Made by a program: the position numbers and the translations under genes. Below the pieces are notes generated by a model. That model was not told where the DNA came from, ran no database searches, and was given only the letters and a program-made list of their open reading frames with translations. From positions 9,546 to 73,545 of the forward strand of contig CAYJVM010000001.1 of the NCBI GenBank assembly GCA_964373665.1: 64,000 nucleotides of DNA, written 5' to 3'. This DNA comes from an uncultured archaeon. GTDB taxonomy: Archaea > Aenigmatarchaeota > Aenigmatarchaeia > CG10238-14 > SCSR01. The first letter of the stretch is position 1. Every line of letters begins with the position of its first letter. Positions 1,925-54,600 of this stretch are shown here, in pieces.

Positions 1925-3349
1925 ATGGCTCTCAAGTTATTCAACACAATGACAAAAAAGAAGGAAGTTTTCAAGCCCTTGAAGAATAAGCAAGTGAAGC
2001 TATTCGTTTGCGGTGTCACAGTCTATGACTATACGCATCTAGGCCATGCAAGAACATACGTCTTCTACGACACCCTAGTTAGGTTCCTGGAGCATCAAAA
2101 TTACAAAGTAAAGTACCTCCAGAATGTAACTGATGTCGGGCATTTGCTTGATACAGGTGAAGACAGAATTCTTAAAAAGGCAAAGCAGGAACAGAAAGAT
2201 CCATTGCAGATTGCCAACAACTATTTGATCCATTGGCTGGAGATGATGGAGAAGCTCCATATAAAAAAGCCTGATTTAATGCCGCGGGCAACCGAGCACA
2301 TAAATGAAATCATCACACAAGTTCAGCATATAATCAAAAACGGCTGCGCCTACATAGCAAACGGCTCTGTATATTTTGATGTCTCAAAGTTCAAAGATTA
2401 TGGAAAACTTTCAAAGAAAATTCCGCAGGAATTGAAGGCGGGTGCAAGGGCCGGTATCAATACAGACAAGACTGATCCGCATGATTTTGCTTTATGGATA
2501 CAGGCTGCGCCGGAGCATGTGCTGAGATGGGAGTCTCCATGGTCTGTCGGGTATCCTGGCTGGCATATAGAAGACACGGCCATAGCTGTGAAATGCTTTG
2601 GACCGCAATATGATATACACGGCGGGGCAATAGAGCTTGCATTTCCCCACCATGAAGCCGAGATAGCGCAGGCAGAATCTGCAACCGGAAAGAAACCTTA
2701 TGTAAGATACTGGGTTCATACTGGTTTGTTGACAATTGATGGGCAGAAGATGAGCAAGTCTTTGAAAAATTTTGTAACCATCCGAGAAGCTTTAGAGAAA
2801 CATTCTCCAGAGACATTAAGAATATGGGTGTCGTCTTCACACTACAGAAAACCAATAGACTATAAAGCGAATGACTTGGAATCAGCTAGAAATAAAGTCG
2901 AAAAAATCAGAGCCGTTTTGGAGAGAATAAGAGAAAGTTATGATAAAACAGGTAAAAAGTCTTACTTTTTGAAAAACAAGATTAAAATATTAAAAAATGA
3001 TTTCTTGAATGCACTGAATGATGATATGAATACGCCTTTAGGATTAACTAAATTCTTCCAGATTATTTCACTCGTCAACAAGTATATTGACAACAATAAA
3101 TTTTCAAAAGATGACTTGGAATTTGCTGAATACACCCTAAAAGAATTAGGCGATATACTGCAGATAATTCCTCCATTAAAGAAAAAAGAATTACCTAAAG
3201 AAGTTTTTGGGTTGATAAAGAAAAGAGAGGCTGCTCGAAAGATTGGCAACTTTGAGCTTGCGGATAAAATCAGAGACGAAATTAGAGAGAAGTACGGAAT
3301 AATTGTAGAAGACACAAAAGAAGGTTTCAAGTGGAAACCTGTCATCTAG
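1925..3349 (+). CDS. cysS: Cysteinyl-tRNA synthetase
   Basis: Class I aaRS with HLGH (HIGH) motif at CGVTVYDYTHLGHARTY and KMSKS at GQKMSKSLKN. Size is 474 aa. The gene lies immediately downstream of tRNA-Cys. Confidence 0.9.
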   Translation: MALKLFNTMTKKKEVFKPLKNKQVKLFVCGVTVYDYTHLGHARTYVFYDTLVRFLEHQNYKVKYLQNVTDVGHLLDTGEDRILKKAKQEQKDPLQIANNYLIHWLEMMEKLHIKKPDLMPRATEHINEIITQVQHIIKNGCAYIANGSVYFDVSKFKDYGKLSKKIPQELKAGARAGINTDKTDPHDFALWIQAAPEHVLRWESPWSVGYPGWHIEDTAIAVKCFGPQYDIHGGAIELAFPHHEAEIAQAESATGKKPYVRYWVHTGLLTIDGQKMSKSLKNFVTIREALEKHSPETLRIWVSSSHYRKPIDYKANDLESARNKVEKIRAVLERIRESYDKTGKKSYFLKNKIKILKNDFLNALNDDMNTPLGLTKFFQIISLVNKYIDNNKFSKDDLEFAEYTLKELGDILQIIPPLKKKELPKEVFGLIKKREAARKIGNFELADKIRDEIREKYGIIVEDTKEGFKWKPVI

Positions 3350-4130
3350 ATGAGCAATAACTCTTTATAAACTCAACTATGTCGGCAGCTGGTACAGCAA
3401 ACGCCATGGTTGCATCGTGCTGTGCTATTTTAGTGACCATGCCTACAAGGGCACCTTCGTGTAAAACAGGCGATCCGCTCATGCCATGTGACATATTAGG
3501 CCTAGTCCAATATTGTGTCATAAAGGATTTTTCGACAAATGTCGATGCAAATATCAACGGATGAATGCCATCCTTTTTTTCAGGATTTAACGTGGAAATG
3601 TTGCTTTGGCTTTCAGGTTCTTTGAATTCCAGTTGATTATCGAATTCTCTAGGAAAGGCTTTGACAAGCGCCAAGTCTTTGTAAAAGTCCTTGCTTACTA
3701 CACTCCCGTATCTTACACCTTCACTTTCCCCATCATATATAGACACAAAGAATTTTTGGTTGTTGTAAGGCGAAAATGGCAATTGAAATTTTGTTATCGA
3801 GTCTACATTATGATATGGCGTAAGCACTAGACCCCCACCCAGTTCATATCCTACGCCTGCATAAAGAATGCCTATAGGATCAGACCAATCGTCATTCATA
3901 GACTCTATAGCTGCAGTTTCCACCCTTACCATTCTTCGGTGAGAATTCTCAGTGGTATGTCTTTTGGAAAAAAAGTTAGATACAGGATGCGGTTTACTTA
4001 TTTTGCATACATTACCATTGTTGGAGAACGAAAGGACATAATTTGAGTTATAAGGCAGCGCAACGTATAAGGATGCCAACCCAATTAATGCCGCGGCACA
4101 AAAATTCAGAATCCCAAATTTGGGAATCAT
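3342..4130 (-). CDS. Secreted trypsin-like (S1 family) serine peptidase
   Basis: N-terminal hydrophobic signal/anchor. Active-site-like GMSGSPV (GDSGGP-type). His and Asp lie in plausible positions (TPYHNVD, DLALVK). Confidence 0.55.
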   Translation of the reverse strand: MIPKFGILNFCAAALIGLASLYVALPYNSNYVLSFSNNGNVCKISKPHPVSNFFSKRHTTENSHRRMVRVETAAIESMNDDWSDPIGILYAGVGYELGGGLVLTPYHNVDSITKFQLPFSPYNNQKFFVSIYDGESEGVRYGSVVSKDFYKDLALVKAFPREFDNQLEFKEPESQSNISTLNPEKKDGIHPLIFASTFVEKSFMTQYWTRPNMSHGMSGSPVLHEGALVGMVTKIAQHDATMAFAVPAADIVEFIKSYCSSR

Positions 4131-4187: not shown

Positions 4188-5510
4188 TTGTTTCAAGAAG
4201 TCTTTACTTCTCAAGGCATTTCCATGGTCGACTTTAAGAAAGTTTGGGTATGGTATTCCCGCGAATCCGTCCAAAAAGCTCTTCTTGAGATATCAAAAGA
4301 CCGTGAAGTGATTTCTGTTTTTCAGGACGGGGGATTCGGCAGGCGACCGGACATACTACAATATCCCGCAGACATAACCCAGTCGGTGGCAAACGGCACA
4401 GTAGCATTCCACGGCTCGGTCGAAAGATGGACTAATCCCATGAATCTTGGAGTCGGATTGGGTAAGAAGGAACTTGACAACCTGAGAAAAGGATGGGACG
4501 TTATTATAGACCCAGACGTCAAGGATTTTGAAATCTCTAAAATAGTCGCCAAGTCAATAATCAATGGATTGGAGAAGCACAAGATCAAGAACTATTCCAT
4601 TAAATTCACAGGCGGCAAAGGGTTCCACATAGGAGTCGGCTTCGAGTCGTTTCCAGATATGATTAATCTGCAGAAAACGAGCGCTCGTTATCCGATGCTA
4701 TCGCATGCGATTATCGAATATCTAAAATGGTATTTGAAAGACGAGCTTAAGGAAAAGTTGCTTAGCCTCGATGACGCGGAAGATCTTGCAAAAAGGGCCG
4801 GCAAAACACTCCATGATGTGGTTACCGAAAATGAGTTTGATCCCTACAAGCTGGTTTCGATGGACCTTTTTGGATCGCGACATTTGTTCAGATTGCCGTT
4901 TTCGCTGCACGAGTCGACTCTGCTGGTAAGCCTGCCGATAAATCCTGAAAAGATAGACAGGTTCACAAAAGAGGATGCGACCATTGACAAAGCCAAAATT
5001 GAAGAAAAGTTTTTGATACCAAAAATTGAGGGGGATGGTGAAGGACTGGTAGTTGAAGCTCTTGACTGGGCGTCCAAATTCAAGGTGGAAGAAATGGTTG
5101 CAACGCCTCGCAAGTTCAACATCCAGGTAAAGGAAGTGCCTGAGGGTTTCTTTCCGCCGTGTATTAAGAACATACTTGATACTGGTTTGATGGAAGGCAG
5201 GAAGCGCGCCGTATTCATCCTGATAACCTTCCTCAGGAATATGGGTTGGAACGACGAAAAGATTGAGAAAAGGATATTCGAGTGGAACGAGAAAAATGTC
5301 CCTCCATTGAGAGCCAACTATTTACGATCGCAGCTGAGATGGCACTTTAGGCAGGAGAGGAATTTGCTGCCGCCCAACTGCGAGAACGATGTTTTCTACA
5401 GGCAGCTTGGGCTTTACGACATCTGTTGCAAAGAGATTGACCATTCTAATGTAAAGAATCCAGTCAACGTTCCTTTGCGCAGACTGAGGGAAGGGAGGAA
5501 GCACAAGTAA
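4188..5510 (+). CDS. priS: DNA primase catalytic subunit PriS fused to a C-terminal PriL-CTD-like 4-Cys (Fe-S) domain
   Basis: AEP primase motif I VIIDPD, motif II FTGGKGFHIGV, motif III FRLPFSLHES. The C-terminal ~140 aa carry FFPPCIKNIL...LPPNCEN...YDICCKE, resembling the PPCM-containing Fe-S domain of the primase large subunit. Confidence 0.7.
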   Translation: MFQEVFTSQGISMVDFKKVWVWYSRESVQKALLEISKDREVISVFQDGGFGRRPDILQYPADITQSVANGTVAFHGSVERWTNPMNLGVGLGKKELDNLRKGWDVIIDPDVKDFEISKIVAKSIINGLEKHKIKNYSIKFTGGKGFHIGVGFESFPDMINLQKTSARYPMLSHAIIEYLKWYLKDELKEKLLSLDDAEDLAKRAGKTLHDVVTENEFDPYKLVSMDLFGSRHLFRLPFSLHESTLLVSLPINPEKIDRFTKEDATIDKAKIEEKFLIPKIEGDGEGLVVEALDWASKFKVEEMVATPRKFNIQVKEVPEGFFPPCIKNILDTGLMEGRKRAVFILITFLRNMGWNDEKIEKRIFEWNEKNVPPLRANYLRSQLRWHFRQERNLLPPNCENDVFYRQLGLYDICCKEIDHSNVKNPVNVPLRRLREGRKHK

Positions 5511-5555
5511 CGCAAATCTATTAATGCTTTCATTTAACCTTATAATTACGATACA

Positions 5556-6065
5556 ATGCCTGAAGAGACAATCACTTTTGAACTGATAAGAAGGATACAT
5601 TTGGACGAACAAAGGACGCCTGGCCTGACCAAGCTGCCGCCGAACTTTTTCCAAGCCGTATCTGAATATATGGCACAGAAGAAACAGCTTGAGCTGGATG
5701 ACAGGAGGACTGTGCTTGAGGCGAGAAGCATAGAGAATATGGTGCAGAACATTTTTGACAGGAGGGAAAGGAAGATACTCAACCATGCCATAATTTCCGC
5801 AAGGACAGGCTTACCGCCTGAAAACATGGTCGATGAGGAAAAGCTCTTTTACAAATCTGTCTTGAACCTGATCAAGGCTAGAAGGGACATATTCAAGTCG
5901 CCCAAAGTTGAATCGAAGCCAGTTGTAATTTTTAAGGAAGATGTCCCGGAATTCTTGGGCTTGGATGAAAAAACATACGGACCGTTCAAGAAGGGCGACA
6001 CAGCGACACTGCCAGAGGAGAACATGAAAATTTTGCTTGAAAGGGAAGCCATAGAGGTAATGTGA
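5556..6065 (+). CDS. GINS subunit (Gins15/Gins51-like)
   Basis: C-terminal B-domain-like segment TYGPFKKGDTATLPEENMKILLEREAIE. The gene is adjacent to priS, the known priS-gins15 synteny in Crenarchaeota/TACK archaea. Size is 169 aa. Confidence 0.45.
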   Translation: MPEETITFELIRRIHLDEQRTPGLTKLPPNFFQAVSEYMAQKKQLELDDRRTVLEARSIENMVQNIFDRRERKILNHAIISARTGLPPENMVDEEKLFYKSVLNLIKARRDIFKSPKVESKPVVIFKEDVPEFLGLDEKTYGPFKKGDTATLPEENMKILLEREAIEVM

Positions 6066-6091: not shown

Positions 6092-6385
6092 TTGATTAAA
6101 ATGAAATTCCCCCAAAAAATGAAGACATTTTGCCCCAAGTGCAAAAAGCACACTTTGCACACAGTCGAGATTACAAAGAAGAAACCTAGGGGCGCTATGA
6201 AGCACGGGCAGAGAATTTTTATGCGCAAGATGAAAGGATATGGAAGCTTTCCTAGACCCCAGCCAGATCACGAGAAGAGCACAAAGAAGGTCGATCTTCG
6301 ATACAAGTGTTCCGAATGCGGCAAGAAGCATATGCGCGGAAGCGGCTGGAGGGCAAAGAAATTCGAGATTGTGAAGGTGGATTAG
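6092..6385 (+). CDS. rpl44e: Ribosomal protein L44e
   Basis: CPKCKKH...CSECGK zinc ribbon, basic 97-aa protein, followed by rps27e (conserved archaeal gene pair). Confidence 0.85.
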   Translation: MIKMKFPQKMKTFCPKCKKHTLHTVEITKKKPRGAMKHGQRIFMRKMKGYGSFPRPQPDHEKSTKKVDLRYKCSECGKKHMRGSGWRAKKFEIVKVD

Positions 6386-6574
6386 ATGAAAGATATAATA
6401 CAGATGCCGAAAAGCAGATTCCAGAGGGTGGCTTGCAGGAAATGCAGGAACGACCAGATAGTCTTCAACAAGGCGTCTACCCAGGTCAACTGCCTAAAGT
6501 GCGGCGCCGAGATGCTCATCCCGACAGGCGGCTCGGCCGAGATAAAGGGAAGGGCCGCGAGAACATTCACTTAA
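6386..6574 (+). CDS. rps27e: Ribosomal protein S27e
   Basis: C4 zinc finger VACRKCRNDQIVFNKASTQVNCLKCG, 62 aa. TAGATG junction with rpl44e. Confidence 0.85.
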   Translation: MKDIIQMPKSRFQRVACRKCRNDQIVFNKASTQVNCLKCGAEMLIPTGGSAEIKGRAARTFT

Positions 6575-6612: not shown

Positions 6613-7170
6613 ATGTTTTGGAAATCAAGCAAGTGCAAAAATTGCGACACGAACATCAAGTTCGAATGGAAATGGTGCCCCAGTTGCGGGTTTAGCCTGA
6701 AAAAGCGCGATATTTTTGTCGATGTGGAAAGGGACATTCACCGCATGGAAAAGGAGTTGGACATGAAAATACCAACGTTTATGCTAAAACCAGGAATGCA
6801 TGCAAAGGGAATAGGCATCACAATTTCTTCCAACAACAACTCCCCGCCAAAAATTCAAGTCACGCCATTAGGAAACAGGCAGCATAAGCATATTCATGAA
6901 AAGCATGTGCACAGGCCTGTCAGGATAGCCAAGTACACCGAAGAACCCGAGGCTAGGATAGAGAAGAAAAACAATGTGCAGATAATCAACCTGAACCTTC
7001 CGGACGTCAAGAGCGTTGACGACATTGAGATAAGAAAGTTCTCGCAGAGCATAGAGGTCAGGGCGTTCGCAGGCGATAAGGGCTATTTCAAGCTCATACC
7101 GATTCCGTCAAACTCTACTATCAACAATGAGTTCAAAGACGGGGTTCTGAAGATTCAAGTCGCGAAATAG
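6613..7170 (+). CDS. Zn-ribbon protein with a C-terminal Hsp20/alpha-crystallin-like domain
   Basis: N-terminal CKNCDT...CPSCG ribbon. The C-terminal end EIRKFSQSIEVRAFAGDKGYFKLIPIPSNSTINNEFKDGVLKIQVAK resembles a small heat-shock protein C-terminus. Confidence 0.45.
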   Translation: MFWKSSKCKNCDTNIKFEWKWCPSCGFSLKKRDIFVDVERDIHRMEKELDMKIPTFMLKPGMHAKGIGITISSNNNSPPKIQVTPLGNRQHKHIHEKHVHRPVRIAKYTEEPEARIEKKNNVQIINLNLPDVKSVDDIEIRKFSQSIEVRAFAGDKGYFKLIPIPSNSTINNEFKDGVLKIQVAK

Positions 7171-7171
7171 G

Positions 7172-7870
7172 TTAGAATATCAGGTACACGAAAAGACCGA
7201 ACGTTATTATGGTGCCGAGATCCGCAAGAGGAGTCATCAATGGCATCACGAGGTTATTGGGATCCTCTTTTCTTCTATAGACATAAAAGACGGCCGACGA
7301 CGCCAGCAGCACGACGATGCTTGTCATCACGGCTGAAGTTAAGACAGAGACCGCTGTAACTTTCACTACAGTGCCAATAGTCAGAGGAAATCCTTTGAGA
7401 TAGGCTACAGCGGACGAAATCAGGCCAATGTAAAGCGAGGACATGATAGAAACCTGGGCTATAGTCATAATTATTTTTCTGACGTCCTTGTTTTGCCACC
7501 ATTTTCCGATAACATTCTTGGTGAACGCCAGGGTGGAGAGCCTCGATACCATTATCATGCCGTAATCTCCCATCATGTCATTCAATGCCGGAAACAGGAT
7601 CAGCAATGGCAGGAAGAATAAAAACTTGTCTTGCATTGCCTGCAGGCTTATGCCAGCTAGTGTTCCTATGACGAGAGCTACAACAAGGGCGAAAAGGCTC
7701 TCCCGCAATATCACTGATGCTATGTGTGACCTCGGGCCGTATTCCTTCATGTAGAAGATTGTTCTTTTCGAGATGCTTTGCTTGGCTGCTATTTTGTGTA
7801 TGATCGGGTGGTGCTCGTGCCTGCGTATTTTTCTCAACTGTCTCCTGATGGAAGCACTTGGCATTTTCAT
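7172..7870 (-). CDS. MgtE/SLC41-like divalent-cation transporter membrane-domain protein (half-size, member 2 of a pair)
   Basis: Multi-TM protein containing DPNNLVMPLMTPLADLG (DP..sgP.ittl.D..G pattern of MgtE TM domains). ATGA overlap with the upstream paralogue. Confidence 0.5.
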   Translation of the reverse strand: MKMPSASIRRQLRKIRRHEHHPIIHKIAAKQSISKRTIFYMKEYGPRSHIASVILRESLFALVVALVIGTLAGISLQAMQDKFLFFLPLLILFPALNDMMGDYGMIMVSRLSTLAFTKNVIGKWWQNKDVRKIIMTIAQVSIMSSLYIGLISSAVAYLKGFPLTIGTVVKVTAVSVLTSAVMTSIVVLLASSAVFYVYRRKEDPNNLVMPLMTPLADLGTIITFGLFVYLIF

Positions 7871-8409
7871 ATGATCACTACCGCAACCAACAGCGAGATT
7901 ATTGTAACAATGTCGCCCATCGTCGAGACGTACGGACCCATGATGTTGTTAGGGTCAAAGCCTTTCTTGAAAAGCCAGAAAGTCGCGATCACAGTCAAAG
8001 GCACCTCTGCGGCGTTTGCCATAACTGCTGCAAGAAGCGAAATAAGGATTATTTTCGGGTAGTTGACGTTGAAGACCGCATAGTTGACGGCGTATGCAAC
8101 CGCTCCGAAAAGCAGGCTCAGTATAACCGTCAGCAGGAATGCGGCCTTGATGTTTTCTCTAGTCACTCTACTGAAGATATTCCGCGGTTTGAGAACGCCC
8201 AAATGCAGGCCTGCACTCAGCCTTGCCGCAAGGCTCCCGCTGATGGTGCCCCTCATGTCCAAAAGGCCGGGAAGCAAAATGAAAAATCCTGGGATCAGGT
8301 AGATCTTGTCGAGATAAACCGCAAGCAATGCGCCTGCCGCGATGCCCCCGGTAACTGAAATTAGTTGCGTGTAGAAGATTTCCTTGAAATCCTTCGTGAA
8401 GAACCCCAT
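7867..8409 (-). CDS. MgtE/SLC41-like divalent-cation transporter membrane-domain protein (member 1 of a pair)
   Basis: PGLLDMRGTISGSLAARLS and DPNNIMGPYVSTMGDIVTII motifs. 5 predicted TM helices. Confidence 0.5.
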   Translation of the reverse strand: MGFFTKDFKEIFYTQLISVTGGIAAGALLAVYLDKIYLIPGFFILLPGLLDMRGTISGSLAARLSAGLHLGVLKPRNIFSRVTRENIKAAFLLTVILSLLFGAVAYAVNYAVFNVNYPKIILISLLAAVMANAAEVPLTVIATFWLFKKGFDPNNIMGPYVSTMGDIVTIISLLVAVVII

Positions 8410-8424
8410 AAAATATCTATGGGC

Positions 8425-9492
8425 TTAAGCGTTAAAATCGATTCCGTCGATTGAAACCAAATTGTTTTTTAAATCAACATCGAACTTGACTCCCAGAAGA
8501 TGCTCCACCACCGAAATGTTTGTCCTACAATGTTCTGTCATCTCCTCTATCTTTATTGTCGACTTGCCGCTGGCCAGTGCCAGGAAAGGCATTATCTGGT
8601 CTGACATGTGCTTGTCCAAGGGGAAGTTTAATGATCTGACAAGTTCATGCGAGGCTTCCTCTCCCACTTTCTCAGCGGGCTTGCCTATGGCTCCTATCCT
8701 GTCGGCACCGATCACGGTATTTTCACAATCTGCCCATAATGTTATTGATGTTCCGGGGGAAGCCGTGTCCGCGAGTTTCTTCTCAATTTGAGCGTTTGAA
8801 TATCCTGCATCAACCAAGACTTTATTTGCGCTGTTTGCCTGTCTTTTTGCTATATCCTCCGGCAGTGAGCCTGAAATAGAAATACCTCTTATACTTTCTA
8901 TCCCTCCCCTCTCAGTGAGCTCTATAGGATCCAATTTTTTAACTGGCTTGAAGACGACTTTCACTTCTCCCTGGCCTTTAGGATAAAACCCTTCCCTCAC
9001 AATGTCGACTTTTGGAAGCGGCATGCCTAGCCTGTTCAAAACAGGGAATGTAACATTCTGAACGTACTGGATCGTCGGGGCCCCCAGGCCAGCAGTGCCG
9101 CCTTTGATATCGAGAGTTATTTCACTGTCGGCGAAAACCATTAATGGAGTTAGTGTCTGCAGCAGAAGGCCTATGGAACCTGCAGTGCCGATGTCTATTT
9201 TCCTGCTCCTAACTTCACGCGACTTGGGGACGAACTCTATTTCCGTGGAATGCAATTCAAGTCCTTTAATTTGTGCATTTGCAAACTCTCCAGCAATTTT
9301 AACTCCTGTCAAATGTTGCATTTGCAGCCCGGGCTTGGGCCTATTCTTCCTAATGTTCGTAATTTTTACAGGCTCTAAGGTAAGCGCAGACAGCGCTATG
9401 CAAGTCCTTAGCACCTGGCCATAACCTAATGAGCCATCTATTGTTATCATAGATCTTGTTTGTTTTACAAGATAGAAAAGATTACTCATCAA
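8425..9492 (-). CDS. rtcA: RNA 3'-terminal phosphate cyclase
   Basis: N-terminus ITIDGSLGYGQVLRTCIALSALT...IRKNRPKPGLQMQHL matches the RtcA signature. Size is 355 aa. Confidence 0.8.
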   Translation of the reverse strand: MMSNLFYLVKQTRSMITIDGSLGYGQVLRTCIALSALTLEPVKITNIRKNRPKPGLQMQHLTGVKIAGEFANAQIKGLELHSTEIEFVPKSREVRSRKIDIGTAGSIGLLLQTLTPLMVFADSEITLDIKGGTAGLGAPTIQYVQNVTFPVLNRLGMPLPKVDIVREGFYPKGQGEVKVVFKPVKKLDPIELTERGGIESIRGISISGSLPEDIAKRQANSANKVLVDAGYSNAQIEKKLADTASPGTSITLWADCENTVIGADRIGAIGKPAEKVGEEASHELVRSLNFPLDKHMSDQIMPFLALASGKSTIKIEEMTEHCRTNISVVEHLLGVKFDVDLKNNLVSIDGIDFNA

Positions 9493-17820: not shown

Positions 17821-18663
17821 ATGACTCGAGAAACACTTTTAGAATCCCTTCAGAGCGAACCACTTTTAACAGGCTTGACTGTAGGAAGCGATTTGAATGG
17901 CTCAACTGGTAATTATTTTGGAATAGGAATAGGAAATCGGCATGGTTTAACAGAGGATTTGCCTTTTGATGCTTTAGGTATGGTGTTAATTTCAGAATTG
18001 GTAAAAAGAGAGCTTGGATTAAATACCACTAAAGTTATAGTGGCTGATGAACACGCAAAATCGAATGGCTTCAATGAAGCAGATATTGATAGAATAGCCA
18101 AATCGCGCAGAGATTTTCTTGTAAATACATCAGACAGGCTTGGATTTGCTGGATGGAGAGTCGTCTTAGGTTCTGAGACAGCGAAAGACCCTCAATATTT
18201 AGAAGTTGTAGCTGGAATAAAAAAAGGAAACTACTACGAAAGAGCTCAATTAGCAGATATGGAACTTTGCAGAAAATTAGGAAATGGAATAAAAATAGGA
18301 TGGAAACATGGATACATGGAATTTGATGAGAGGCATTTCGATAGTCTTTACAATTCGATTTTTGGAGATGGGACGACTTTCGTTTACATGGAAGCAGGTA
18401 AAGCACTAGACGGGACGCCCCAAGCGCCGTACTTGGTCAATTCAGACAGATCAAGATTATTTCTAAGACAAGATGAGGATTTAGAGCGGATGGTTAGCCA
18501 GATGTCGAGAAGAGTTAGAGCCCATTTCAATAATATAGTCGATTTATACGAGAGAATATTATACGGCGCGATAAAAACAAACGATAGTCAGAATACACCG
18601 GAAAATCTTAGAATGCGATTAAGGGAGACATATGGTGTTATATTTGGGAGTAGATATATCTAA
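17821..18663 (+). CDS. Hypothetical protein (280 aa) between the racemase and tyrS
   Basis: Long ORF with tight spacing (6 nt after the racemase, 25 nt before tyrS); no motif recognised. Confidence 0.5.
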   Translation: MTRETLLESLQSEPLLTGLTVGSDLNGSTGNYFGIGIGNRHGLTEDLPFDALGMVLISELVKRELGLNTTKVIVADEHAKSNGFNEADIDRIAKSRRDFLVNTSDRLGFAGWRVVLGSETAKDPQYLEVVAGIKKGNYYERAQLADMELCRKLGNGIKIGWKHGYMEFDERHFDSLYNSIFGDGTTFVYMEAGKALDGTPQAPYLVNSDRSRLFLRQDEDLERMVSQMSRRVRAHFNNIVDLYERILYGAIKTNDSQNTPENLRMRLRETYGVIFGSRYI

Positions 18664-37523: not shown

Positions 37524-37608
37524 GCGCCGATAGTCTAGTCTGGTAGGACATCAAACTTTGTGTAAGCCTTCCAAGCTGAACGCATGGGTTCAAATCCCGT
37601 TCGGCGCA
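37524..37608 (+). tRNA. tRNA-Gly (anticodon TCC) with a ~12-nt non-canonical intron near positions 26-30
   Basis: Acceptor GCGCCGA/TCGGCGC. D-arm GTCT-AGTCTGGTA-GGAC. T-arm ATGGG-TTCAAAT-CCCGT. Anticodon arm TAAGC-CUUCCAA-GCTGA (the typical Gly-UCC loop). 12 extra nt (TCAAACTTTGTG) lie between the D-arm and anticodon stem. Confidence 0.6.
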
Positions 37609-37670
37609 CTAGAACTTTAAAGAAATAGAGAAAAATTAAAGAAAAACTCAAAAATTAGCGATGGATTGTC

Positions 37671-40078: not shown

Positions 40079-41164
40079 ATGGATAGAATTATAATGCATA
40101 TAGACTTGGATGCATTCTACGCCGCTGTTGAGGAAAGGGAGAATCCTGAACTGAAAGGCAAGTCGGTGATAATTGGTGCGGATCCTAAGAATGGGCTCGG
40201 TAGGGGGGTTGTAGCTACATGCAATTATTCGGCAAGGGAATTCGGAGTACGTTCGGCCATGCCGATATCAACGGCCTGGAAGCTTTGTCCTGATGGGGTG
40301 TATCTGAGGCCAAACTTTCCCCTTTACGCCGAAGCTTCGCACAAAACAATGGAAATAATTAGAAAGTATGCAGACAAGTTCCAGCAGCTGAGCATAGACG
40401 AAGCATTCATAGACGTGACGGATAAAGTTAATGGTTTTGAGGACGCTGTCAAGTTGGGTGAGAAATTAAAGAGGGAAATTATGGACAAGGAGAAGATAAG
40501 TTCGTCTGTTGGAATTGGTTCCAATAAACTAATTGCCAAACTCGCGTCGGATTACAAAAAGCCGTATGGACTTACGGTCGTAAAGCCGGAAGATGTGGTA
40601 AAATTCCTCAATCCTATGACAGTAAGGAAATTGATAGGCGTCGGACCGAAAACAGAGGCTGCGCTTAAAGAGATGGGAATTGAGAGAGTGGAGCAACTTT
40701 CCAGAGTCAACGTCGCAAAATTAACCCATGTTTTTGGCAAGTTCGGCTACAGATTGAATGAGATGTCACGAGGCATAGACACGAGCCAAGTCTTGGAAGA
40801 AGGCCAGGTCAAGTCGATAGGCAAGGAGGTCACATTTGAGGATGACGTAAAAGAAGCAGAACTGATATTCAAGGCAATAGAATATTTAGTTGATGAATTC
40901 CACTCTGAAATAATCTCAGGCGGCATCCAGTTCAAGACTGTGAATCTTAAGGTGAGATATGAAGGATTCGAAACACATACCCGCGCAAAGACATTGGATT
41001 ACACAAACAGAAAGGACATCATTATAAAAACGGCAAATGGCTTGGTCAAGCCATTCCTCAATGGGAAAAAGAAAATAAGGCTAATAGGCGTAAGAGTTTC
41101 GGGCATCAAATTCATGGGTAAGGAAAACCTGCGCCATCTGGTATCCCGTTATATACGGCAATAA
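40079..41164 (+). CDS. dbh: Y-family DNA polymerase IV (Dbh/Dpo4)
   Basis: HIDLDAFYAAVEE...; SIDEAFIDVT; 361 aa. Confidence 0.85.
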   Translation: MDRIIMHIDLDAFYAAVEERENPELKGKSVIIGADPKNGLGRGVVATCNYSAREFGVRSAMPISTAWKLCPDGVYLRPNFPLYAEASHKTMEIIRKYADKFQQLSIDEAFIDVTDKVNGFEDAVKLGEKLKREIMDKEKISSSVGIGSNKLIAKLASDYKKPYGLTVVKPEDVVKFLNPMTVRKLIGVGPKTEAALKEMGIERVEQLSRVNVAKLTHVFGKFGYRLNEMSRGIDTSQVLEEGQVKSIGKEVTFEDDVKEAELIFKAIEYLVDEFHSEIISGGIQFKTVNLKVRYEGFETHTRAKTLDYTNRKDIIIKTANGLVKPFLNGKKKIRLIGVRVSGIKFMGKENLRHLVSRYIRQ

Positions 41165-45123: not shown

Positions 45124-46236
45124 ATGAAAGATTTTATCCAGATGACAGAAAATCTTGCAAAGATTGTAAGCGAACTTGAGAACCAAAGAAGGCAGGTGGG
45201 TCAGTTCCTTAGAGACATGAATTCTTTTACAAATCTTTCCTTAACAAACGAAATTCTGGAAGACAAAATAATCATACCCGTTGAAAAGTCCGAATTGAAC
45301 AACATCAGGATCGCGGGCATAGATGGCGGGATGGTGAAGAAATCCTTTCATGGTCTCGACATGCTCTTAATCCGAGCGATAGGCGTCGTCTTCAACTATG
45401 AAAACAACAAGCTTGCATCGACGGAATATTATCCAGATTCAATACCAATACCGGAACCGAAGACGGTCTTCGACCCCTTCAACGACTTGGAGTTCGAGAT
45501 TAATTCCAACATCGAGCGACAGCTGAAGGAGATCATTACTGCGAAAGAGACAATAGAGAAACATCACCCAGACATTCTCTTCCTTCACGGTTCTATAATA
45601 CCCCAATGCATCGGCCAGTACACGCTGGTACCCAAGGGTTCCATGCTCTATACCAGTTATCAGAGACTGATTGATGCATACAGACAATTGTTCGAAACAG
45701 TGAAAAGCAGCAAAACCGTCCTCGCGGGTGTCATCGAAGATTCGAGGGGTACAAGGTTCTGCGAGGTGCTGAACAGCTTACTTGTCACTCATTTCAATCC
45801 GCACATGACGCAGACGGCGAAGGTGGCCCTGCTCAAGTCGAAGGACTCAAACCTGTTGACATATGCTTTGAACCATGGGGAGAGGAGCTTTGTGTTTCCC
45901 TATTCAGCAAACCCGAAGAAGCACACGGTGCTGAAGGAGTTCCAGGACAGGGACAAGGTGCTGGTGTTTTATGTAAAGACAGCCGAGTTCGACAGGCCTT
46001 TAAGAGTGGAATTGTTTGCGGACAAGGGTGCTGCCGAGAAGGTCAACCTTGTATCATCATCCTTGCTTTCTCTTGCCGGTCATTCCAACTATGGCATACC
46101 GTCTGTCATTATAGAGGCGGACCAGAGGGCCAAGCTTCAGGAGAGCGATCTGGAGATGTTTTATCATGACATTATCAACAAGGCCGGAAATCTTGCAAGC
46201 TTGATGGAACAGAGGAGGAGCCAAAGACCATTCTAA
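45124..46236 (+). CDS. nurA: NurA 5'-3' nuclease
   Basis: IAGIDGG motif and RNase-H-like layout; 370 aa. Confidence 0.65.
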   Translation: MKDFIQMTENLAKIVSELENQRRQVGQFLRDMNSFTNLSLTNEILEDKIIIPVEKSELNNIRIAGIDGGMVKKSFHGLDMLLIRAIGVVFNYENNKLASTEYYPDSIPIPEPKTVFDPFNDLEFEINSNIERQLKEIITAKETIEKHHPDILFLHGSIIPQCIGQYTLVPKGSMLYTSYQRLIDAYRQLFETVKSSKTVLAGVIEDSRGTRFCEVLNSLLVTHFNPHMTQTAKVALLKSKDSNLLTYALNHGERSFVFPYSANPKKHTVLKEFQDRDKVLVFYVKTAEFDRPLRVELFADKGAAEKVNLVSSSLLSLAGHSNYGIPSVIIEADQRAKLQESDLEMFYHDIINKAGNLASLMEQRRSQRPF

Positions 46237-47579: not shown

Positions 47580-47747
47580 ATGTTACAAGATCGCCCTTTA
47601 ACATGTGATAAATGTGGTCAATCAAGCAATTATCCCAAAAATGAAGCATATAAAGACGGTGTGACATGCAAAAATTGCAATAAGGAGATAGATACGACTA
47701 AACTAAAAGTTCTCGACGTGGTAAAAGCATTTAGAGAAGAAGACTAG
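47580..47747 (+). CDS. Small Zn-ribbon protein (55 aa)
   Basis: MLQDRPLTCDKCGQ...VTCKNCNKEI; below the track threshold; abuts the transposase gene. Confidence 0.3.
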   Translation: MLQDRPLTCDKCGQSSNYPKNEAYKDGVTCKNCNKEIDTTKLKVLDVVKAFREED

Positions 47748-49315
47748 GTATGAACAATCTCATAAAGAGATTTCAAGAATAGCTTAAAGGTAACTACCCT
47801 TTTTGCAGCGTCCTTTATTCCAAGTTCTAACATTACAAGTAGGTTGATTAATGTCCATAAATTGTATAGTGCAACCGAAAACAGAAAATAGAATAATCTT
47901 ATTGAATAATTGTTAGATGTTGTCTTAACTAAACCTTCTCTTTTCTTAACACGGTATCCAGTTTCTATTCCCCATCTCTTACCATACATTCTAGGCAGGT
48001 TTTCAATCAAATCCACATCGTGACTGTTAATTGGAATGTTGGTTGCTATCTTCATCAGACCTTTAGTTCCTTCAACCAGAACAAGGTTCTTTATGATAGC
48101 GTTGCCTCTCTTATAGTTATGAATAACAAATGGTGGTGATACAGTTTCTATAACTTTCTTAACGCCTCTGTCATCAGGCAGTGGTACCACATAATTCAAT
48201 TTCATTGACTGCAACAGGTTGAATATTTTCTCGTTAGCGAATCCTCTATCCATGTAAATCTTGTTGATCTTGATTTTCTTCTGAGTATATTCTAACAACT
48301 CTTTAACTAAATCAGCTTCTCTATCGAAGATGAAAACAGGGAAAGCACATAACGTAAACCTAGTACCGTTTTCTACAATATCAAGAGTAATGTACTTGAA
48401 GTATCTGATAGTACCGTGATCATATTTGCTGTTGACGATGTTGGGATGGTTAGGATCTCCATAATAATGTTGGAAAGTATAGTCAACTGCAACATCAAAC
48501 TTTCTCTTATTAAATTTTCCAGACCTTTTAGCTATCCTAAACAACTCATCCGAAACTTTGGTAAATATGGCCTTGGTAGATTTAGGGTCGTGCTTCTTCA
48601 GATGATAAAGAATTGTGTTGGAAGCTGGTGAAATGGAGCCATTCTTCTTGTAGGACAATGCTCCACCATTCGTGAAACTACCTTCCAATGCCGAATGTAC
48701 TAGAACATCTAATATAGTGTTTTTAGTGTATTTTGCGTTATGCTTTATGTCAAGTTTTATCTTAGGATATATTATCTGTCTTAATCTTTTGGAGAGTTCG
48801 CTTAATTTCTGCTCCTTTTGATATTGTACATTGGTTTCTTTAACTGGCTCTATTTTTTCTTCTATTTTCGGAATTTCTGTGTCGAAACTCAGATCGAATT
48901 TCTCGGATATTTCCCTAATTTTTTTGACTATCAGTTCTATAATTTCCTTTTCTTCCTGAATGAGCTTGTGAACAAGAAAATAGGAAAAGCTCCTTTGGTC
49001 AGGTACCATTAATGTGTTGGTTTCGTCTTTGTCAAAACCTAGATTAAGTGCGTCGTTTTCGTTTGACTTTAGATAATCCGATAGATTTTTGGAGGATTTA
49101 ATTCCTTTCAATTGTTTGTAAATCAAGGCTCTTATCAACGATAATTTGGAGAATCTTATCATTTCTTCATCTGGTATTATGTGACCTATCTCCAGTTTAG
49201 ATAGAAATTCAGATAACTTGATAGAGCTAACATTCTTTAAACTAACAAAATTCTTATATACAGTCTTTTCAATTTTACTAATGGGGATTGTTGCTGTCAT
49301 AGGTAACATCTCCAC
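47744..49315 (-). CDS. DDE transposase, IS4-superfamily (IS1634/ISH3-like size)
   Basis: 523 aa; C-terminal KRWGIETGYRVKKRE (Y..RW.IE....K signature of IS4-type DDE transposases). Confidence 0.7.
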   Translation of the reverse strand: MEMLPMTATIPISKIEKTVYKNFVSLKNVSSIKLSEFLSKLEIGHIIPDEEMIRFSKLSLIRALIYKQLKGIKSSKNLSDYLKSNENDALNLGFDKDETNTLMVPDQRSFSYFLVHKLIQEEKEIIELIVKKIREISEKFDLSFDTEIPKIEEKIEPVKETNVQYQKEQKLSELSKRLRQIIYPKIKLDIKHNAKYTKNTILDVLVHSALEGSFTNGGALSYKKNGSISPASNTILYHLKKHDPKSTKAIFTKVSDELFRIAKRSGKFNKRKFDVAVDYTFQHYYGDPNHPNIVNSKYDHGTIRYFKYITLDIVENGTRFTLCAFPVFIFDREADLVKELLEYTQKKIKINKIYMDRGFANEKIFNLLQSMKLNYVVPLPDDRGVKKVIETVSPPFVIHNYKRGNAIIKNLVLVEGTKGLMKIATNIPINSHDVDLIENLPRMYGKRWGIETGYRVKKREGLVKTTSNNYSIRLFYFLFSVALYNLWTLINLLVMLELGIKDAAKRVVTFKLFLKSLYEIVHT

Positions 49316-49496
49316 CAGAGGAGTCAGTTCACAAGGCTAGCTCCTCTGGCTTACTTATCCAATGGGATAAGATTATTAGTCCTTATCCATAGTCTTATCC
49401 ATAGGTATAATATATATGTACTAGTATTTAAGCTTATCGGTATGGCTATCGGTAGAAAGTATTTAAATATAATAAACGAATTACTTTTAGATTAAT

Positions 49497-49700
49497 ATGG
49501 AAGACGAAATATCCAAGAAAATTGTCAGTACCATTAAATCTTCAGACGAACCAATCGAAACAAAAGAGATAGAACAAAAAATCAAAGGTGTGTCTAGAGA
49601 TAAGATATTGTACAGATTGTTTAATTTGAGAGGTGAAGGAGTAATTAAAGGAAAACAAGTAGGCTCAGGTAAAGGTACTTGGATATGGTGGAAAAAGTAA
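49497..49700 (+). CDS. Small winged-helix protein upstream of the R-M gene (candidate controller/regulator)
   Basis: IETKEIEQKIKGVSRDKILYRLFNLRGEGVIKGKQ. Confidence 0.45.
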   Translation: MEDEISKKIVSTIKSSDEPIETKEIEQKIKGVSRDKILYRLFNLRGEGVIKGKQVGSGKGTWIWWKK

Positions 49701-49718
49701 ACTGCATCAGGAGATAAT

Positions 49719-52700
49719 ATGGTAGAAAAACCAGACTTTGTAGATTCCGTCTTGAACTCTTTTAAGAATATATTAGGAGAGGTAGAGAAAGGCTCATCTG
49801 AACACGATATCAGATACAAGTTTGTCAAGTATTTTCTCGAGGATGTACTAGGTTACGAACCAAGACTGATCAAATGGGAAAAGAAGAGAGCTGACTTGAC
49901 CATCATAGACGATAACAATTTTTCTGTAATAATGATAGAAACGAAAAGACCCCAAGAGGACATAGAGAAAGCATCGATAGAAGAACAGGCTTTCAAGTAT
50001 GAGGAGGGAACTACAAAATACATAGGACTGACTAATTTTTCTCGGTTCAAATTATGGGAAACTAAGGATTCTAAAAGAGAACTGAAGGCGGACATAGACT
50101 TTTCGAGACTAATAGAAAGAAAAAGTGAACTATCGACTGAGGATAAAGGTAATATACTATTTCTGAATAATCTCACCAAAGATCAAATTTTTGATGCAAG
50201 AAAATACGAGAAATTCGACGAAACATATGCTAAAATCGATATAACGAAAGACGTTGGATTTAGAAAATTGTTGGAGAAGCTTAATTTCATTGCCAATAAT
50301 CTTTTGCTGGGATATACGCTGAAAGCATTTGGAGAATACAAAGAAGGTTATGGTAGATACCTGGAAGAATTGAAGCAAGTCGAGAAAGTGTCTAATAATT
50401 CGCATAAAGAAATTAATCATGGTGTGGCCAAGTTCAAGCAAAAGCTAGAGGAAAAATATGAAAAATACAGGACATTTTCTGGCTATTATTTATGGAAGGA
50501 GTATTCGGGAAAAGAGAACATTACAGATGATGAGATAAAGGAAGTTTTCTGCAAAGAAACAATTTACGTATTCCTTAACAAGTTGCTCTTCCTAAGAATA
50601 TGCGAAGATAAGGGATTGCTTGAGAAGAATATTTCAAACGGTGGAATCGAAGAGTTAAGAGCTGTCCTCAAAAAGAGATTTGAAAAAGATATCTTAAACA
50701 AAGAAATACTAAAGCTGGCTTTTGAGAGTGCGAAAGGTCTGTACTCCCATTTTTACGAGACGGGTATCTTGGATTGGTTTAGAACTGGAGATGGTGAACT
50801 AAACGAGTTGTTGAACAGAGTGCTGTGGATAATGAATTCGTTCAACTTTAGACATGTTGACAGGGATATACTAGGCAACCTTTATGAAAAATACCTTCCC
50901 AGTAACGAAAGAAAAAGATTGGGGGAATTTTACACACCAGTTGAGGTTATAGACTACATTTTAACGTCTGTTGGATATACTTACAGCTATGATATTGAAA
51001 CTAAAGATTTGTTAGATCCAGCGTGTGGTTCAGGCGGTTTCTTAGTTAGAGGTACAAGAAGATTAATTAGCAGGTATTTGATGAAATTTGGTAAATCTGA
51101 CAAGAAAGAATTGAGAGATCCTAAAAATTGGAAGGAGATTGTTAGTAGATTGTCACCTGACGAAGCAAAAATAATTCTTGAATCTATTAAAGAACATATT
51201 TATGGTCTTGATGTCAATCCTTTTGCCTGCCACATTGCTGAGATGAACCTTCTTTTTCAAGTAGTAGATTTGTATCAGAAAGCTAGAGAAAAATATAGAG
51301 ATTACAAGTTAGGAAGATTCAAAATATATAGAACAGATTCTTTGGAAAAACCTAGTCAAAAACAGATTTTTGATTACACCCATTCGACATTCTTGGAAGA
51401 GCAGGAAGAGATCGATAAGATTAAGAGCAAGAAGTTTGATTTTGTTACGGGTAACCCACCATATATCCGCGTACAAATGTTGGATGAGAGAGTGAAGAAG
51501 TATATTACCGAGAATTACAAAACGGCTTATAGCAACTTTGATTTATATGTTATTTTTATTGAGCGTGGTCTGAATTGGCTTAAGGATAATGGGAATTTTG
51601 GATACATTACGTCCAATCAATTCATAAATAGAGAATATGGTAAAAAATTAAGAAAATATATTTTGGAAAATTCCAAAATCATAAGCATAATAGATTTCGG
51701 TGATTCTGGAGTATTCAAGGATGCTACAAATTATCCAATGATACTGATTTTTAAAAGGGGCACACAAAAATCTAATAGGTTCAAATTTATAAAAGTAAAG
51801 CAATCGAAAGATAATTTAATTGGAGATATTTTTTCCAAGTTTAAGGAAAAAGAATATAATGGTCCTTATTTTGATATTTTTGAAATTGAACAGAATAAAC
51901 TTTCCGAAGAAACATGGCAACTATTTTCAGGTACAATAATTAAAATTCTAGAAAAGCTAGAAAAGAATATTAAACTGAAGGATCTGTGTAGAGAAAATGG
52001 TGTAGTAGTTGGTGTACAAACAGGATTAAATGATGTTTATGTTGTAAATAAAGACACTATTAACAAATACAAATTAGAAAGCAGTTTAATCAAAAAGTTG
52101 TTAGACAGTAGAGATGTAAGACGATGGAAAATAAATCATAGTGGACTGTATTTAATATACCCTTATTACGAAAGGGGTGGAAAAACAATCTTGATTGATG
52201 AAAAGACATTGAAGTCTGATTTTTCGAACGTTTATTCATATTTACTTGAAAATAAAAATAAACTTATAAAACGATGGGGTGTGAAAAACTGTTGGTATGA
52301 ATTGCCAACCGCAAGAACTCTAAATTTCTTTGAACAGAAAAAAATTTTAACTCCGACCATAAGTAATTTTAACAACTTTGCCTTAGATACAAATGGACTT
52401 TTCTTTGCGAAAGGAGCAGGAGGAAGCTATGGAATTATATTAAAAAATGATAGCAAAGATAACTATCTTTACATTTTGGGTCTGATAAATTCCAGATTGT
52501 TAGAATTCTACTTAAAGCAATTTCTTCCTGTAAAAGCCGGTGGATGGTATGAATATATAGCAGCATATCTGGAAAAACTCCCTATCAAACTTCCAGAAAC
52601 TGCAGAGGAAAAGAAAATTACCAATCAGATAATCAAGAAAGTAGACGAAATTTTAGAATTGCATAAATCTGGAATTGTGGATATAGACACTGCACTTGAA

Positions 52701-53096
52701 AATGTAGAAACAGAGAAACTATGCAATTTACCAAAAATAACATTCAATATAAAAGATGATGCTAAATTTGAGAAAGTTAAAACAGAAGGAAACAAAATTT
52801 ACATCAATTCTCAGGATTTCATAGAGGTCAAAGACAAGAAACTTAAGGACTTTGTTGAAATGTATCTCAACTTTAACAGTGAAAAGTTATCTAAAGATAT
52901 CAAAAGTATGCTTATCAACATTCCTATTCCAAAATCCGATGAAATTCTAAAAGATGTAATAGCTAAAGGCGGTATCGATTATTCACAGATTAAAGAAGAA
53001 ATTAGAAAACTAGAGCAGGAAATTAACGATTTGGTTTATCAAATTTATGGAATAACTAAAGAAGAACAACATGTTATAGATAATAGTATTAAATAA
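49719..53096 (+). CDS. Type IIG restriction-modification enzyme (fused PD-(D/E)xK endonuclease, gamma-class N6-adenine methyltransferase and target-recognition domain; Eco57I/MmeI-like)
   Basis: N-terminal D..E.K (ADLTIIDD..VIMIETKRP); MTase motif I LDPACGSGGFLV and motif IV FDFVTGNPPYIRV; 1125 aa. Confidence 0.8.
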   Translation: MVEKPDFVDSVLNSFKNILGEVEKGSSEHDIRYKFVKYFLEDVLGYEPRLIKWEKKRADLTIIDDNNFSVIMIETKRPQEDIEKASIEEQAFKYEEGTTKYIGLTNFSRFKLWETKDSKRELKADIDFSRLIERKSELSTEDKGNILFLNNLTKDQIFDARKYEKFDETYAKIDITKDVGFRKLLEKLNFIANNLLLGYTLKAFGEYKEGYGRYLEELKQVEKVSNNSHKEINHGVAKFKQKLEEKYEKYRTFSGYYLWKEYSGKENITDDEIKEVFCKETIYVFLNKLLFLRICEDKGLLEKNISNGGIEELRAVLKKRFEKDILNKEILKLAFESAKGLYSHFYETGILDWFRTGDGELNELLNRVLWIMNSFNFRHVDRDILGNLYEKYLPSNERKRLGEFYTPVEVIDYILTSVGYTYSYDIETKDLLDPACGSGGFLVRGTRRLISRYLMKFGKSDKKELRDPKNWKEIVSRLSPDEAKIILESIKEHIYGLDVNPFACHIAEMNLLFQVVDLYQKAREKYRDYKLGRFKIYRTDSLEKPSQKQIFDYTHSTFLEEQEEIDKIKSKKFDFVTGNPPYIRVQMLDERVKKYITENYKTAYSNFDLYVIFIERGLNWLKDNGNFGYITSNQFINREYGKKLRKYILENSKIISIIDFGDSGVFKDATNYPMILIFKRGTQKSNRFKFIKVKQSKDNLIGDIFSKFKEKEYNGPYFDIFEIEQNKLSEETWQLFSGTIIKILEKLEKNIKLKDLCRENGVVVGVQTGLNDVYVVNKDTINKYKLESSLIKKLLDSRDVRRWKINHSGLYLIYPYYERGGKTILIDEKTLKSDFSNVYSYLLENKNKLIKRWGVKNCWYELPTARTLNFFEQKKILTPTISNFNNFALDTNGLFFAKGAGGSYGIILKNDSKDNYLYILGLINSRLLEFYLKQFLPVKAGGWYEYIAAYLEKLPIKLPETAEEKKITNQIIKKVDEILELHKSGIVDIDTALENVETEKLCNLPKITFNIKDDAKFEKVKTEGNKIYINSQDFIEVKDKKLKDFVEMYLNFNSEKLSKDIKSMLINIPIPKSDEILKDVIAKGGIDYSQIKEEIRKLEQEINDLVYQIYGITKEEQHVIDNSIK

Positions 53097-53102
53097 TATA
53101 AC

Positions 53103-53594
53103 TTATTTTGGAATATACTTAATTACTTTTACCAAACCCTTCCATTGTTTCACGGGAATCTTAACAAACTTATTAGATGCAATATAAGATTCTATACTTT
53201 TAGAACTTAGAGACTTTGATACAGATGTGCCTTTTAAAATTAGTGTAAATGTACCTAAATCACCTAAACTTGTAAATCTACAAATTTTCTTATCATAGTA
53301 CTGTCCCGCATACATAGAACATACTTCGTTGCGTATTTCTGAGTCCAAATTAAGAGTTAATATTTCATGAATTACACCATTAGCTATTACATCTCCTTCA
53401 CCACTGACACAAACCTCATAGTTTTCCATAGTAAACTCAGGAGGACATACAATCAAATCATCAAGTTGTGCTAATGCATTTTCAACAGCCGGTAGTGTAG
53501 CATCTATAACTTGATCTGCAACCCACATTTGAAAGAGAAATACAATTAGAGCTGTTATACTAATGCCACCTATTATCGGTATACCCCCTTTCAT
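53103..53594 (-). CDS. Membrane-anchored/secreted protein with four Cys
   Basis: N-terminal TM GGIPIIGGISITALIVFLF; last gene of a minus-strand string. Confidence 0.4.
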   Translation of the reverse strand: MKGGIPIIGGISITALIVFLFQMWVADQVIDATLPAVENALAQLDDLIVCPPEFTMENYEVCVSGEGDVIANGVIHEILTLNLDSEIRNEVCSMYAGQYYDKKICRFTSLGDLGTFTLILKGTSVSKSLSSKSIESYIASNKFVKIPVKQWKGLVKVIKYIPK

Positions 53595-53905
53595 TAAATC
53601 ATCTTTAATAAACTAGTCTAATTCCAACTTCAGCCTCTTTTATAGCATTATTTTCAACGAGTTTGGATAATCCCCACATCAACAAAAAGAAACCACAAAT
53701 GCTTGCTAGAGTGTATGTTGAACTATCATTCCGATATTCTTGCTGATAATAGTTCACGAGTTCACCTCCTGTAGCTCTGCATATTTTCTATGCCTTTTAG
53801 AAAAAGGAAGATGCATCATATTGTACGCATAATTCCATTGCTTTTCCGTCATGGATTTGAAACCTTTATTACAAATATTACAAACTCTTTTTGATTTCAT
53901 AACAT

Positions 53906-54310: not shown

Positions 54311-54600
54311 CTCATACGTCTAACCCTAACCTCTGTATTTGGTCTATTTTTGGCATATTTCCTAAGGAGTCTCCTCTGATTAATATCTCTCCTGAAAGAA
54401 GTTGGGGTCTCAACTTCGACTATTCTAGTCTTCTTCCCTTTTTTTGCAATTATATCGGGTCTTACTGAATGACTGTGTACTCTAAGTGTTCTAGGTTTAT
54501 CGAATCCAGAAACATCTGCATGTACTCTCCAACCATAACTTTCTAACGCAGCAGCTCTTCTAATTACAGATTTATCGTGCTTCGAGATTTTACGGCTCAT
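54307..54600 (-). CDS. Hjc-like PD-(D/E)xK-fold protein, paralogue 1 (E-x-E-T variant)
   Basis: RRAAALESYGWRVHADVSGF...RPDIIAKKGKKTRIVEVET; same pattern as its neighbour; ATGA overlap. Confidence 0.45.
   Translation of the reverse strand: MSRKISKHDKSVIRRAAALESYGWRVHADVSGFDKPRTLRVHSHSVRPDIIAKKGKKTRIVEVETPTSFRRDINQRRLLRKYAKNRPNTEVRVRRMR

Follow-up and report, generated by a model that had tools for sequence, protein, structure and literature searches.

Does a single gene of an uncultured archaeon encode a whole replicative primase, with the catalytic subunit PriS joined to the iron-sulfur domain of the large subunit PriL, or has an assembly error or a mobile element given the appearance of one? 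The question is raised by a gene in a 64-kb stretch of contig CAYJVM010000001.1 (assembly GCA_964373665.1), referred to here as the window, from a member of Candidatus Aenigmatarchaeota. The gene, at positions 4224-5510, very probably encodes a monomeric replicative DNA primase of this phylum, which belongs to DPANN Cluster 2, and its sequence is best read as a minimal PriS core, a flexible linker, and a trimmed PriL C-terminal domain (CTD), with no PriL N-terminal domain. Both the fusion and the gene order around it have been published, and the fused primase is a known feature; variation at the fourth ligand of the predicted iron-sulfur cluster is a small detail and the only one that may be new.

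An earlier note on this DNA listed open reading frames (ORFs) at 4188..5510 (+) and 5556..6065 (+), and both are present. The first is uninterrupted and was called mechanically from a TTG at 4188, which adds 12 residues without support in any homolog. The true start is almost certainly the ATG at 4224, giving a predicted protein of 428 aa, because a called protein that is 100% identical to the window primase (P0001) is 428 aa long and aligned homologs start at or within a few residues of the same methionine. Residue numbers refer to the 428-aa protein, and adding 12 converts them to the 440-aa numbering used before. Each of the motifs quoted in the note, IIDPDV, GGKGFH, RLPFSLH, FPPC, PPNCEN, and DICC, can be found in the translation.

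The simplest objection is that the long ORF is an artefact of assembly or a frameshift that fused separate priS and priL genes, an outcome that the note itself had named as fatal to its proposal and that has some prior plausibility in metagenome assemblies, though nothing more speaks for it. The identical 428-aa protein occurs on five independent contigs from different sequencing runs. At E ≤ 0.001 the protein has 1,771 homologs; nearly all of the best 120 are ~430 aa long, with query coverage of 94-98% and E-values of 3.6e-292 to 1e-164. A relative is encoded by 269 GTDB species-level genomes, and among the best 80 of these, whose loci were inspected, nearly all matches run unbroken from about residue 1 to residues 418-428. 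Hundreds of relatives are of equal length and collinear through the linker. A simple read-through of two canonical genes could not yield this ORF in any case, because the C-terminal part is a CTD of only ~130 aa and not a PriL of ~350 aa. On these grounds an artefact is so improbable that it can be set aside.

Some relatives outside the window are much longer than 430 aa. Fused primases of 687-1019 aa (P0241, P0147, P0154, P0194, P0240, P0228, and P0167) carry inteins, of LAGLIDADG type in six of the seven; the intein lies inside the PriS domain or at its start in six, and downstream of the PriS match in P0241. In another relative of 659 aa (P0123), the CTD is followed by an additional PriCT_1-like stretch. 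That relatives of 660-1019 aa might be new domain fusions was considered and rejected, most of them being LAGLIDADG-intein insertions.

The assignment of the N-terminal part as a catalytic core of the archaeo-eukaryotic primase (AEP) type, also made in the note, holds. Pfam PF01896 matches the window primase at E 1.3e-5 and also 46 of 49 aligned homologs, the best of them at E 4.9e-9. An AlphaFold2 model of the full-length protein has a mean predicted local distance difference test score (pLDDT) of 89.7, mostly above 90 in the catalytic domain, and a Foldseek search with this model returned human, yeast, and Pyrococcus PriS together with bacterial Prim-Pol and LigD polymerase domains at E-values of ~1e-7 to 1e-5, the values for human, Pyrococcus, and yeast PriS being ~1e-7. 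Only PriS and Prim-Pol structures were returned, because the catalytic domain dominates the full-length model. The AEP motifs are in place (Table 1), and in the predicted nucleotide-binding segment R223, P225, and S227 never vary across the 49-sequence alignment, and conservation of H229 is 90% or higher. The only cysteines in the whole protein are at positions 313, 386, 401, and 402; none lies in the catalytic domain, which therefore has no Cys-based zinc knuckle. In the linker that follows, the block at residues 290-299 has a pLDDT of 41.

The note had taken the C-terminal extension for a domain resembling the PriL CTD and had allowed that it might instead be an unrelated Cys-rich fold. Profile and fold searches bear out the first reading. 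Positions 87-189 of Pfam PF04104 match the window primase at E 1.5e-4, and 47 of 49 homologs match, the best at E 5.5e-9. A profile of the CTD alone, searched against the whole PDB, had a sole match, to P. abyssi PriL (9f26_B, E 5.7e-4), which runs through two collinear stretches, FPPC... and PPNC...C...NP. A model of the CTD alone has a pLDDT of 88.1 and a predicted template modelling score of 0.82, and its nine best Foldseek matches are all PriX or yeast or human PriL. Of 236 relatives, 231 have a [RK]xRxx[FYW] motif after the first cysteine. The homology is confined to the CTD: a canonical full-length PriL (~330-400 aa, comprising an N-terminal PriS-binding domain and the CTD) was not matched, only the CTD part of the PF04104 profile aligns, and the PriL N-terminal domain is absent from the window primase. 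The label 'PriCT', which the note had attached to this domain, does not apply; it denotes a distinct Pfam family, and neither PriCT_1 nor PriCT_2, the C-terminal domains of phage and plasmid primases, matches the window primase, although PriCT_1 matches weakly in 2 of 49 members (best E 4.6e-4).

Several observations weigh against this interpretation of the gene. The Foldseek E-values of the CTD alone are weak (0.1-1.6), and the Pfam scores of the window primase lie just below the gathering cut-offs (26.0 vs 26.8 bits, and 21.5 vs 22.4 bits for PF04104); the assignment rests on family-wide matches and fold because of these low scores. Moreover, only three cysteines (C313, C386, and C401) are invariant, and a standard four-Cys cluster is not assured for that reason. 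Against the NCBIfam models of full-length PriL the protein scores 12-21 bits vs cut-offs of 339-479. A single-sequence phmmer search of the PDB gave marginal PriS matches (E ~0.1) and no PriL match, so that a family profile was needed.

The variation lies in the segment after PPNC. It has the form C-x5-C in 79 of 95 diverse representatives at 50% identity, as it does in P. abyssi PriL (LCTPDKHC). The 120 nearest homologs are more mixed: C-x5-C is found in 60, CC with a His in 22 including the window primase, C-x2-C in 4, and a single Cys in 29. A His stands six residues past the first Cys in 22/22 of the CC type, and a downstream His is present in 29/29 of the single-Cys type. When the window primase is aligned to a profile built from the 79 C-x5-C representatives, C401 falls on Cys3 and H407 on Cys4. 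A MAFFT alignment had placed C401 on the second Cys of C-x5-C, implying loss of Cys3; the re-alignment to the profile was preferred, but is not proven. In the 'DICC' quoted in the note, the first Cys is invariant and the second is not; with a His in the fourth-Cys column, the motif probably contributes one canonical ligand rather than two.

From these alignments the CTD probably carries a [4Fe-4S] cluster on C313, C386, and C401, with either H407 or the extra C402 as the fourth ligand, unless the cluster has been altered or lost. A more specific proposal, plausible enough to mention but rather doubtful, is that in an Aenigmatarchaeota sub-clade including the source genome the canonical Cys4 has been replaced by His (H407), with or without an added Cys beside Cys3, so that the domain would either hold a [4Fe-4S] site of 3Cys+1His (or tandem-Cys) type or have no cluster. 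Less likely again is that the CTD as a whole is a cluster-free, PriX-like helical bundle, in which the role in binding the initiating nucleotide would be kept, Fe-S binding lost, and the conserved cysteines left as structural or vestigial residues. Such a bundle would agree with the loss of conservation of the fourth Cys in the clade, with the single-Cys segments counted above, with the presence of PriX among the best structural matches, and with the activity of NEQ395, the fused primase of Nanoarchaeum equitans, whose Cys-to-Ala mutants still work without a cluster (PMC10250227). The sequence profile of the CTD, for its part, matches PriL and not PriX or the helix-bundle domains of plasmid primases. 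If true, the ligand change would amount to a natural experiment, one that asks whether the cluster in primases acts as a redox switch or a structural brace, and, if confirmed biochemically, drift of the fourth ligand would bear on the unresolved debate over redox signalling and structure as the role of the [4Fe-4S] cluster.

How the protein would work as a fused primase is suggested by its homologs, NEQ395 and the heterodimeric primases. Residues D96, D98, and D214 would hold the catalytic metals, and H135, R223, and H229 would bind the elongating or incoming nucleoside triphosphate. The CTD would swing on the linker, with R326, R328, and F331 gripping the initiating nucleotide by its triphosphate together with the 5′ end of the primer, a grip that could make dinucleotide formation and the synthesis of short RNA primers possible.

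Whether this is the replicative primase of its host or a plasmid- or virus-derived primase-polymerase of the pTN2/pRN1 type on an integrated element can be judged from its surroundings and from published trees. Fusions of PriS with helix bundles are common on mobile elements (PMC3914693, PMC3973330), and the window does contain a transposase and restriction-modification island, though ~43 kb away. The gene itself is set among housekeeping genes in an arrangement that is conserved: among the 80 inspected loci, a GINS homolog lies downstream on the same strand in 71 of the 75 whose sequence extends far enough past the primase, usually followed by L44e and S27e (GINS and both ribosomal protein genes all present in 55/69), and CysRS is nearby in 26/80. 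Local GC content is in line with the genome background, no helicase or integrase adjoins the gene, and in published trees the fused primases of DPANN archaea group with PriS and PriL of cellular origin (PMC7414124). A mobile origin is consequently very improbable, and the chromosomal, essential character of the primase gene is supported by the conserved Gins51/L44e/S27e synteny together with the LAGLIDADG inteins of some relatives.

Named homologs and related loci all belong to Candidatus Aenigmarchaeota/Aenigmatarchaeota among the 80 inspected, save two titled as bacterial metagenome-assembled genomes (L013 and L041), and the closest GTDB representative is 84% identical (L074). Aenigmarchaeota are listed in DPANN Cluster 2 (PMC7414124), so the host lineage fits the group with fused primases. 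Also in the window are archaeal genes for ribosomal proteins and tRNA synthetase, and genes for NurA and a Y-family polymerase. Six-frame searches of the 64-kb window with family hidden Markov models found the primase gene once and nothing further above noise, hence no second primase copy, and neither PF04104 nor PF01896 matched any of the other 21 scanned ORFs of at least ~225 aa in the window. No separate canonical priS or priL has been reported in Cluster 2 (PMC7414124).

The gene that follows the primase was described in the note as a 169-aa Gins15/51 protein, which is confirmed: it is of Gins51 type because its domains stand in A-then-B order and it carries Gins51_C. In the PDB it matches T. 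kodakarensis Gins51 over the C-terminal region (3anw_A) and also 5ghr_B, a Gins51 C-domain. The best NCBIfam label, 'Gins23', was discarded as misleading, since it covers the A domain only and scores 45 against a cut-off of 120.

The note had also compared the gene order to the priS-gins synteny of TACK archaea. The order is indeed present and kept in relatives, but it is not specific to TACK, and the source genome is a DPANN archaeon. A PriS-Gins15-L44E-S27E cluster was described in 2008 by Berthon, Cortez and Forterre, who found PriS next to Gins15 throughout the Crenarchaea and, beyond them, in Methanosarcinales and haloarchaea (PMC2643942); because it occurs in Euryarchaeota too, the arrangement is no TACK marker. 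In the PPsG/LSIN cluster of that study, PCNA-PriS-Gins15 stands next to L44E-S27E-aIF2alpha-Nop10. The window shares the order of primase, Gins51, L44e, and S27e, but lacks an adjacent PCNA and has a zinc-ribbon ORF after S27e in place of aIF-2alpha and Nop10, the genes found after S27e in many archaea. Berthon et al. took the conserved arrangement to suggest a functional association of PriS and Gins15 (PMC2643942), and the gene order seen here is consistent with a functional link between primase, GINS, and an MCM/CMG-type helicase, as proposed for archaea generally (PMC2643942).

Table 1. Coordinates of the fused primase gene, its domains and residues, and the adjoining genes in the window.
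Feature	Coordinates (nt)	Strand	Basis or remarks
Fused PriS-PriL(CTD) primase gene (very probable)	4224..5510	+	428 aa plus stop; P0001 and homolog starts
PriS-type AEP catalytic domain, residues 1-265	4224..5018	+	Pfam PF01896, AlphaFold2 model, Foldseek
AEP motif I, D96-P-D98 (predicted metal ligands)	4509..4517	+	Invariant in 49/49 sequences; strand 93-98 of model
AEP motif II, G130-G-K-G-F-H135 (sxH motif)	4611..4628	+	G130, G131, F134, and H135 invariant
AEP motif III, M213-D214 (third acidic residue)	4860..4865	+	D214 invariant; strand 212-214
Predicted nucleotide-binding segment, R223-L-P-F-S-L-H229	4890..4910	+	PDB alignment with human PriS KSPFSVH
Inter-domain linker, residues ~266-299	5019..5120	+	AlphaFold2: helix 273-286, low-confidence 290-299
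PriL C-terminal (Fe-S) domain-like helical domain, residues 300-428	5121..5507	+	
Cys313 (FPPC), predicted cluster ligand 1	5160..5162	+	Invariant; aligns with P. abyssi PriL FPPC
R326-K-R328-A-V-F331, likely counterpart of NEQ395 R301/R303/F306	5199..5216	+	K327, R328, and F331 invariant
Cys386 (PPNC), predicted cluster ligand 2	5379..5381	+	Invariant; aligns with P. abyssi PriL PPNC
Cys401 (aligns to ligand 3) and Cys402	5424..5429	+	Cys401 invariant; Cys402 a clade-specific neighbour
His407, in column of canonical Cys4 of C-x5-C	5442..5444	+	hmmalign to profile of 79 diverse representatives
Gins51/Gins15-type GINS subunit, 169 aa	5556..6065	+	Pfam Sld5 and Gins51_C; PDB matches
GINS A domain (Sld5), residues ~9-107	5580-5876	+	25.9 bits vs cut-off 22.3
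GINS B domain (Gins51_C), residues ~123-165	5922-6050	+	E 4.2e-15; 55.7 bits vs cut-off 27
Ribosomal protein genes L44e (6101-6385) and S27e (6386-6574)	6101..6574	+	Pfam and gene calls; complete conserved cluster

Other genes near the primase are less regular. Divergent from it is a 262-aa protein (3342-4130, -) with an N-terminal hydrophobic segment and weak matches to trypsin-like and S55 peptidases under the Pfam cut-offs; it is not a conserved neighbour, a radical-SAM gene standing upstream of the primase in one relative (L004) and CysRS directly upstream in two others (L006 and L007). Right after S27e is a 185-aa ORF (6613-7170, +) with an N-terminal zinc ribbon and a C-terminal part that, by eye, resembles an HSP20/alpha-crystallin domain; in relatives an HSP20 gene is found here or close by, in one case together with a separate zinc-ribbon gene. 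Two overlapping ORFs (7172-7870 and 7867-8409, both -) each match the MgtE family according to precomputed annotation on the identical contig and represent either a split or a tandem-duplicated MgtE-type transporter. The RNA 3′-phosphate cyclase RtcA is encoded at 8425-9492 (-).

Farther along, a 280-aa ORF (17821-18663, +) amid housekeeping genes matches nothing in Pfam at E ≤ 1e-4, and the sole RNA gene detected in the 64 kb is a tRNA-His (GTG) of 86 nt (37524-37609, +), which is above standard tRNA length. Besides RtcA, the nucleic-acid-processing genes of the window include those for a Y-family (Dpo4-like) DNA polymerase (40079-41164, +) and the NurA nuclease (45124-46236, +). GC content is 0.31-0.35 at ~48000-56000 vs 0.42-0.47 elsewhere in the window, and genes for a 523-aa DDE transposase (47744-49315, -) and a 1125-aa restriction-modification enzyme of type IIG that resembles Eco57I/MmeI (49719-53096, +) lie here; the region 47744-53096 with its low-GC stretch is probably a horizontally acquired island.

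Compared with canonical PriS and PriL (P. abyssi 9f26, human 4rr2 and 5exr, and yeast 3lgb and 6di2), the window primase has the same catalytic fold and motifs, CTD fold, and first three cluster cysteines, but joins both functions in one chain and lacks the PriS-docking N-terminal domain of PriL and a Cys-based zinc motif. Its CTD is also shorter, at ~130 aa vs 181-187 aa in the yeast and human PriL-CTD chains. Sulfolobus PriX (4wyh and 5of3) and the helix bundles of plasmid primases (RepB', ColE2 Rep, pRN1, and PolpTN2) have no Fe-S cysteines, unlike this CTD. The note had likened the fusion to both Nanoarchaeum and plasmid primases. The former comparison agrees with the published placing of Aenigmarchaeota among the lineages with fused primases (PMC3914693, PMC7414124), whereas the latter needs correction, pTN2-type fusions having been reported as independent in origin (PMC3914693).

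The nearest characterized counterpart is NEQ395, the sole AEP primase detected in the N. equitans genome, which was purified as a brown monomer with a [4Fe-4S] cluster on C289/C364/C376/C384 by Schneider, Bergsch and Lipps in 2023 (PMC10250227). This enzyme primes at xTx triplets to make RNA primers of ~9 nt, and its PriL domain is needed for initiation, while the cluster is dispensable in vitro (PMC10250227). Residues R301/R303/F306 bind the initiating nucleotide and the 5′ end of the primer, and their mutation abolishes priming but not extension (PMC10250227). By its published description, NEQ395 is, like the window primase, a single chain with an AEP core, a helical or flexible linker, a PriL-CTD of ~110-130 aa, and no PriL N-terminal domain, and in both Cys1 is followed by R-x-R-x-x-F and Cys2 stands in a PPNC-like context. 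The NEQ395 linker is flexible and protease-sensitive (PMC10250227), analogous to the low-pLDDT linker seen here. The two differ in length, 428 aa in the window primase vs 393 aa in NEQ395, and at the cluster, where NEQ395 has four Cys ligands by its published description and the window primase has His407 aligned at the last-Cys position and an extra Cys402 after Cys3. A search of the retrieved proteins by the published Cys positions did not find NEQ395 among them.

Iyer et al. first noted the fusion in N. equitans in 2005 (cited in PMC3914693), and in 2014 Raymann et al. added Nanohaloarchaea and Parvarchaeota to the list of its carriers (PMC3914693). Dombrowski et al. in 2020 found the fused version in all examined DPANN Cluster 2, explicitly including Aenigmarchaeota, and in all Undinarchaeota, and considered it a synapomorphy (PMC7414124). 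The fused primase is already in use as a marker of DPANN Cluster 2 in phylogenetics, and NEQ395 has already been proposed as a minimal model primase. For annotation, the present assignment is useful rather than new, in that database entries for the named nearest homologs read 'hypothetical protein' though they too would be replicative primases. Set beside the fused primases of DPANN Cluster 2 and Undinarchaeota, the window primase is one more member of the group, without substantive difference.

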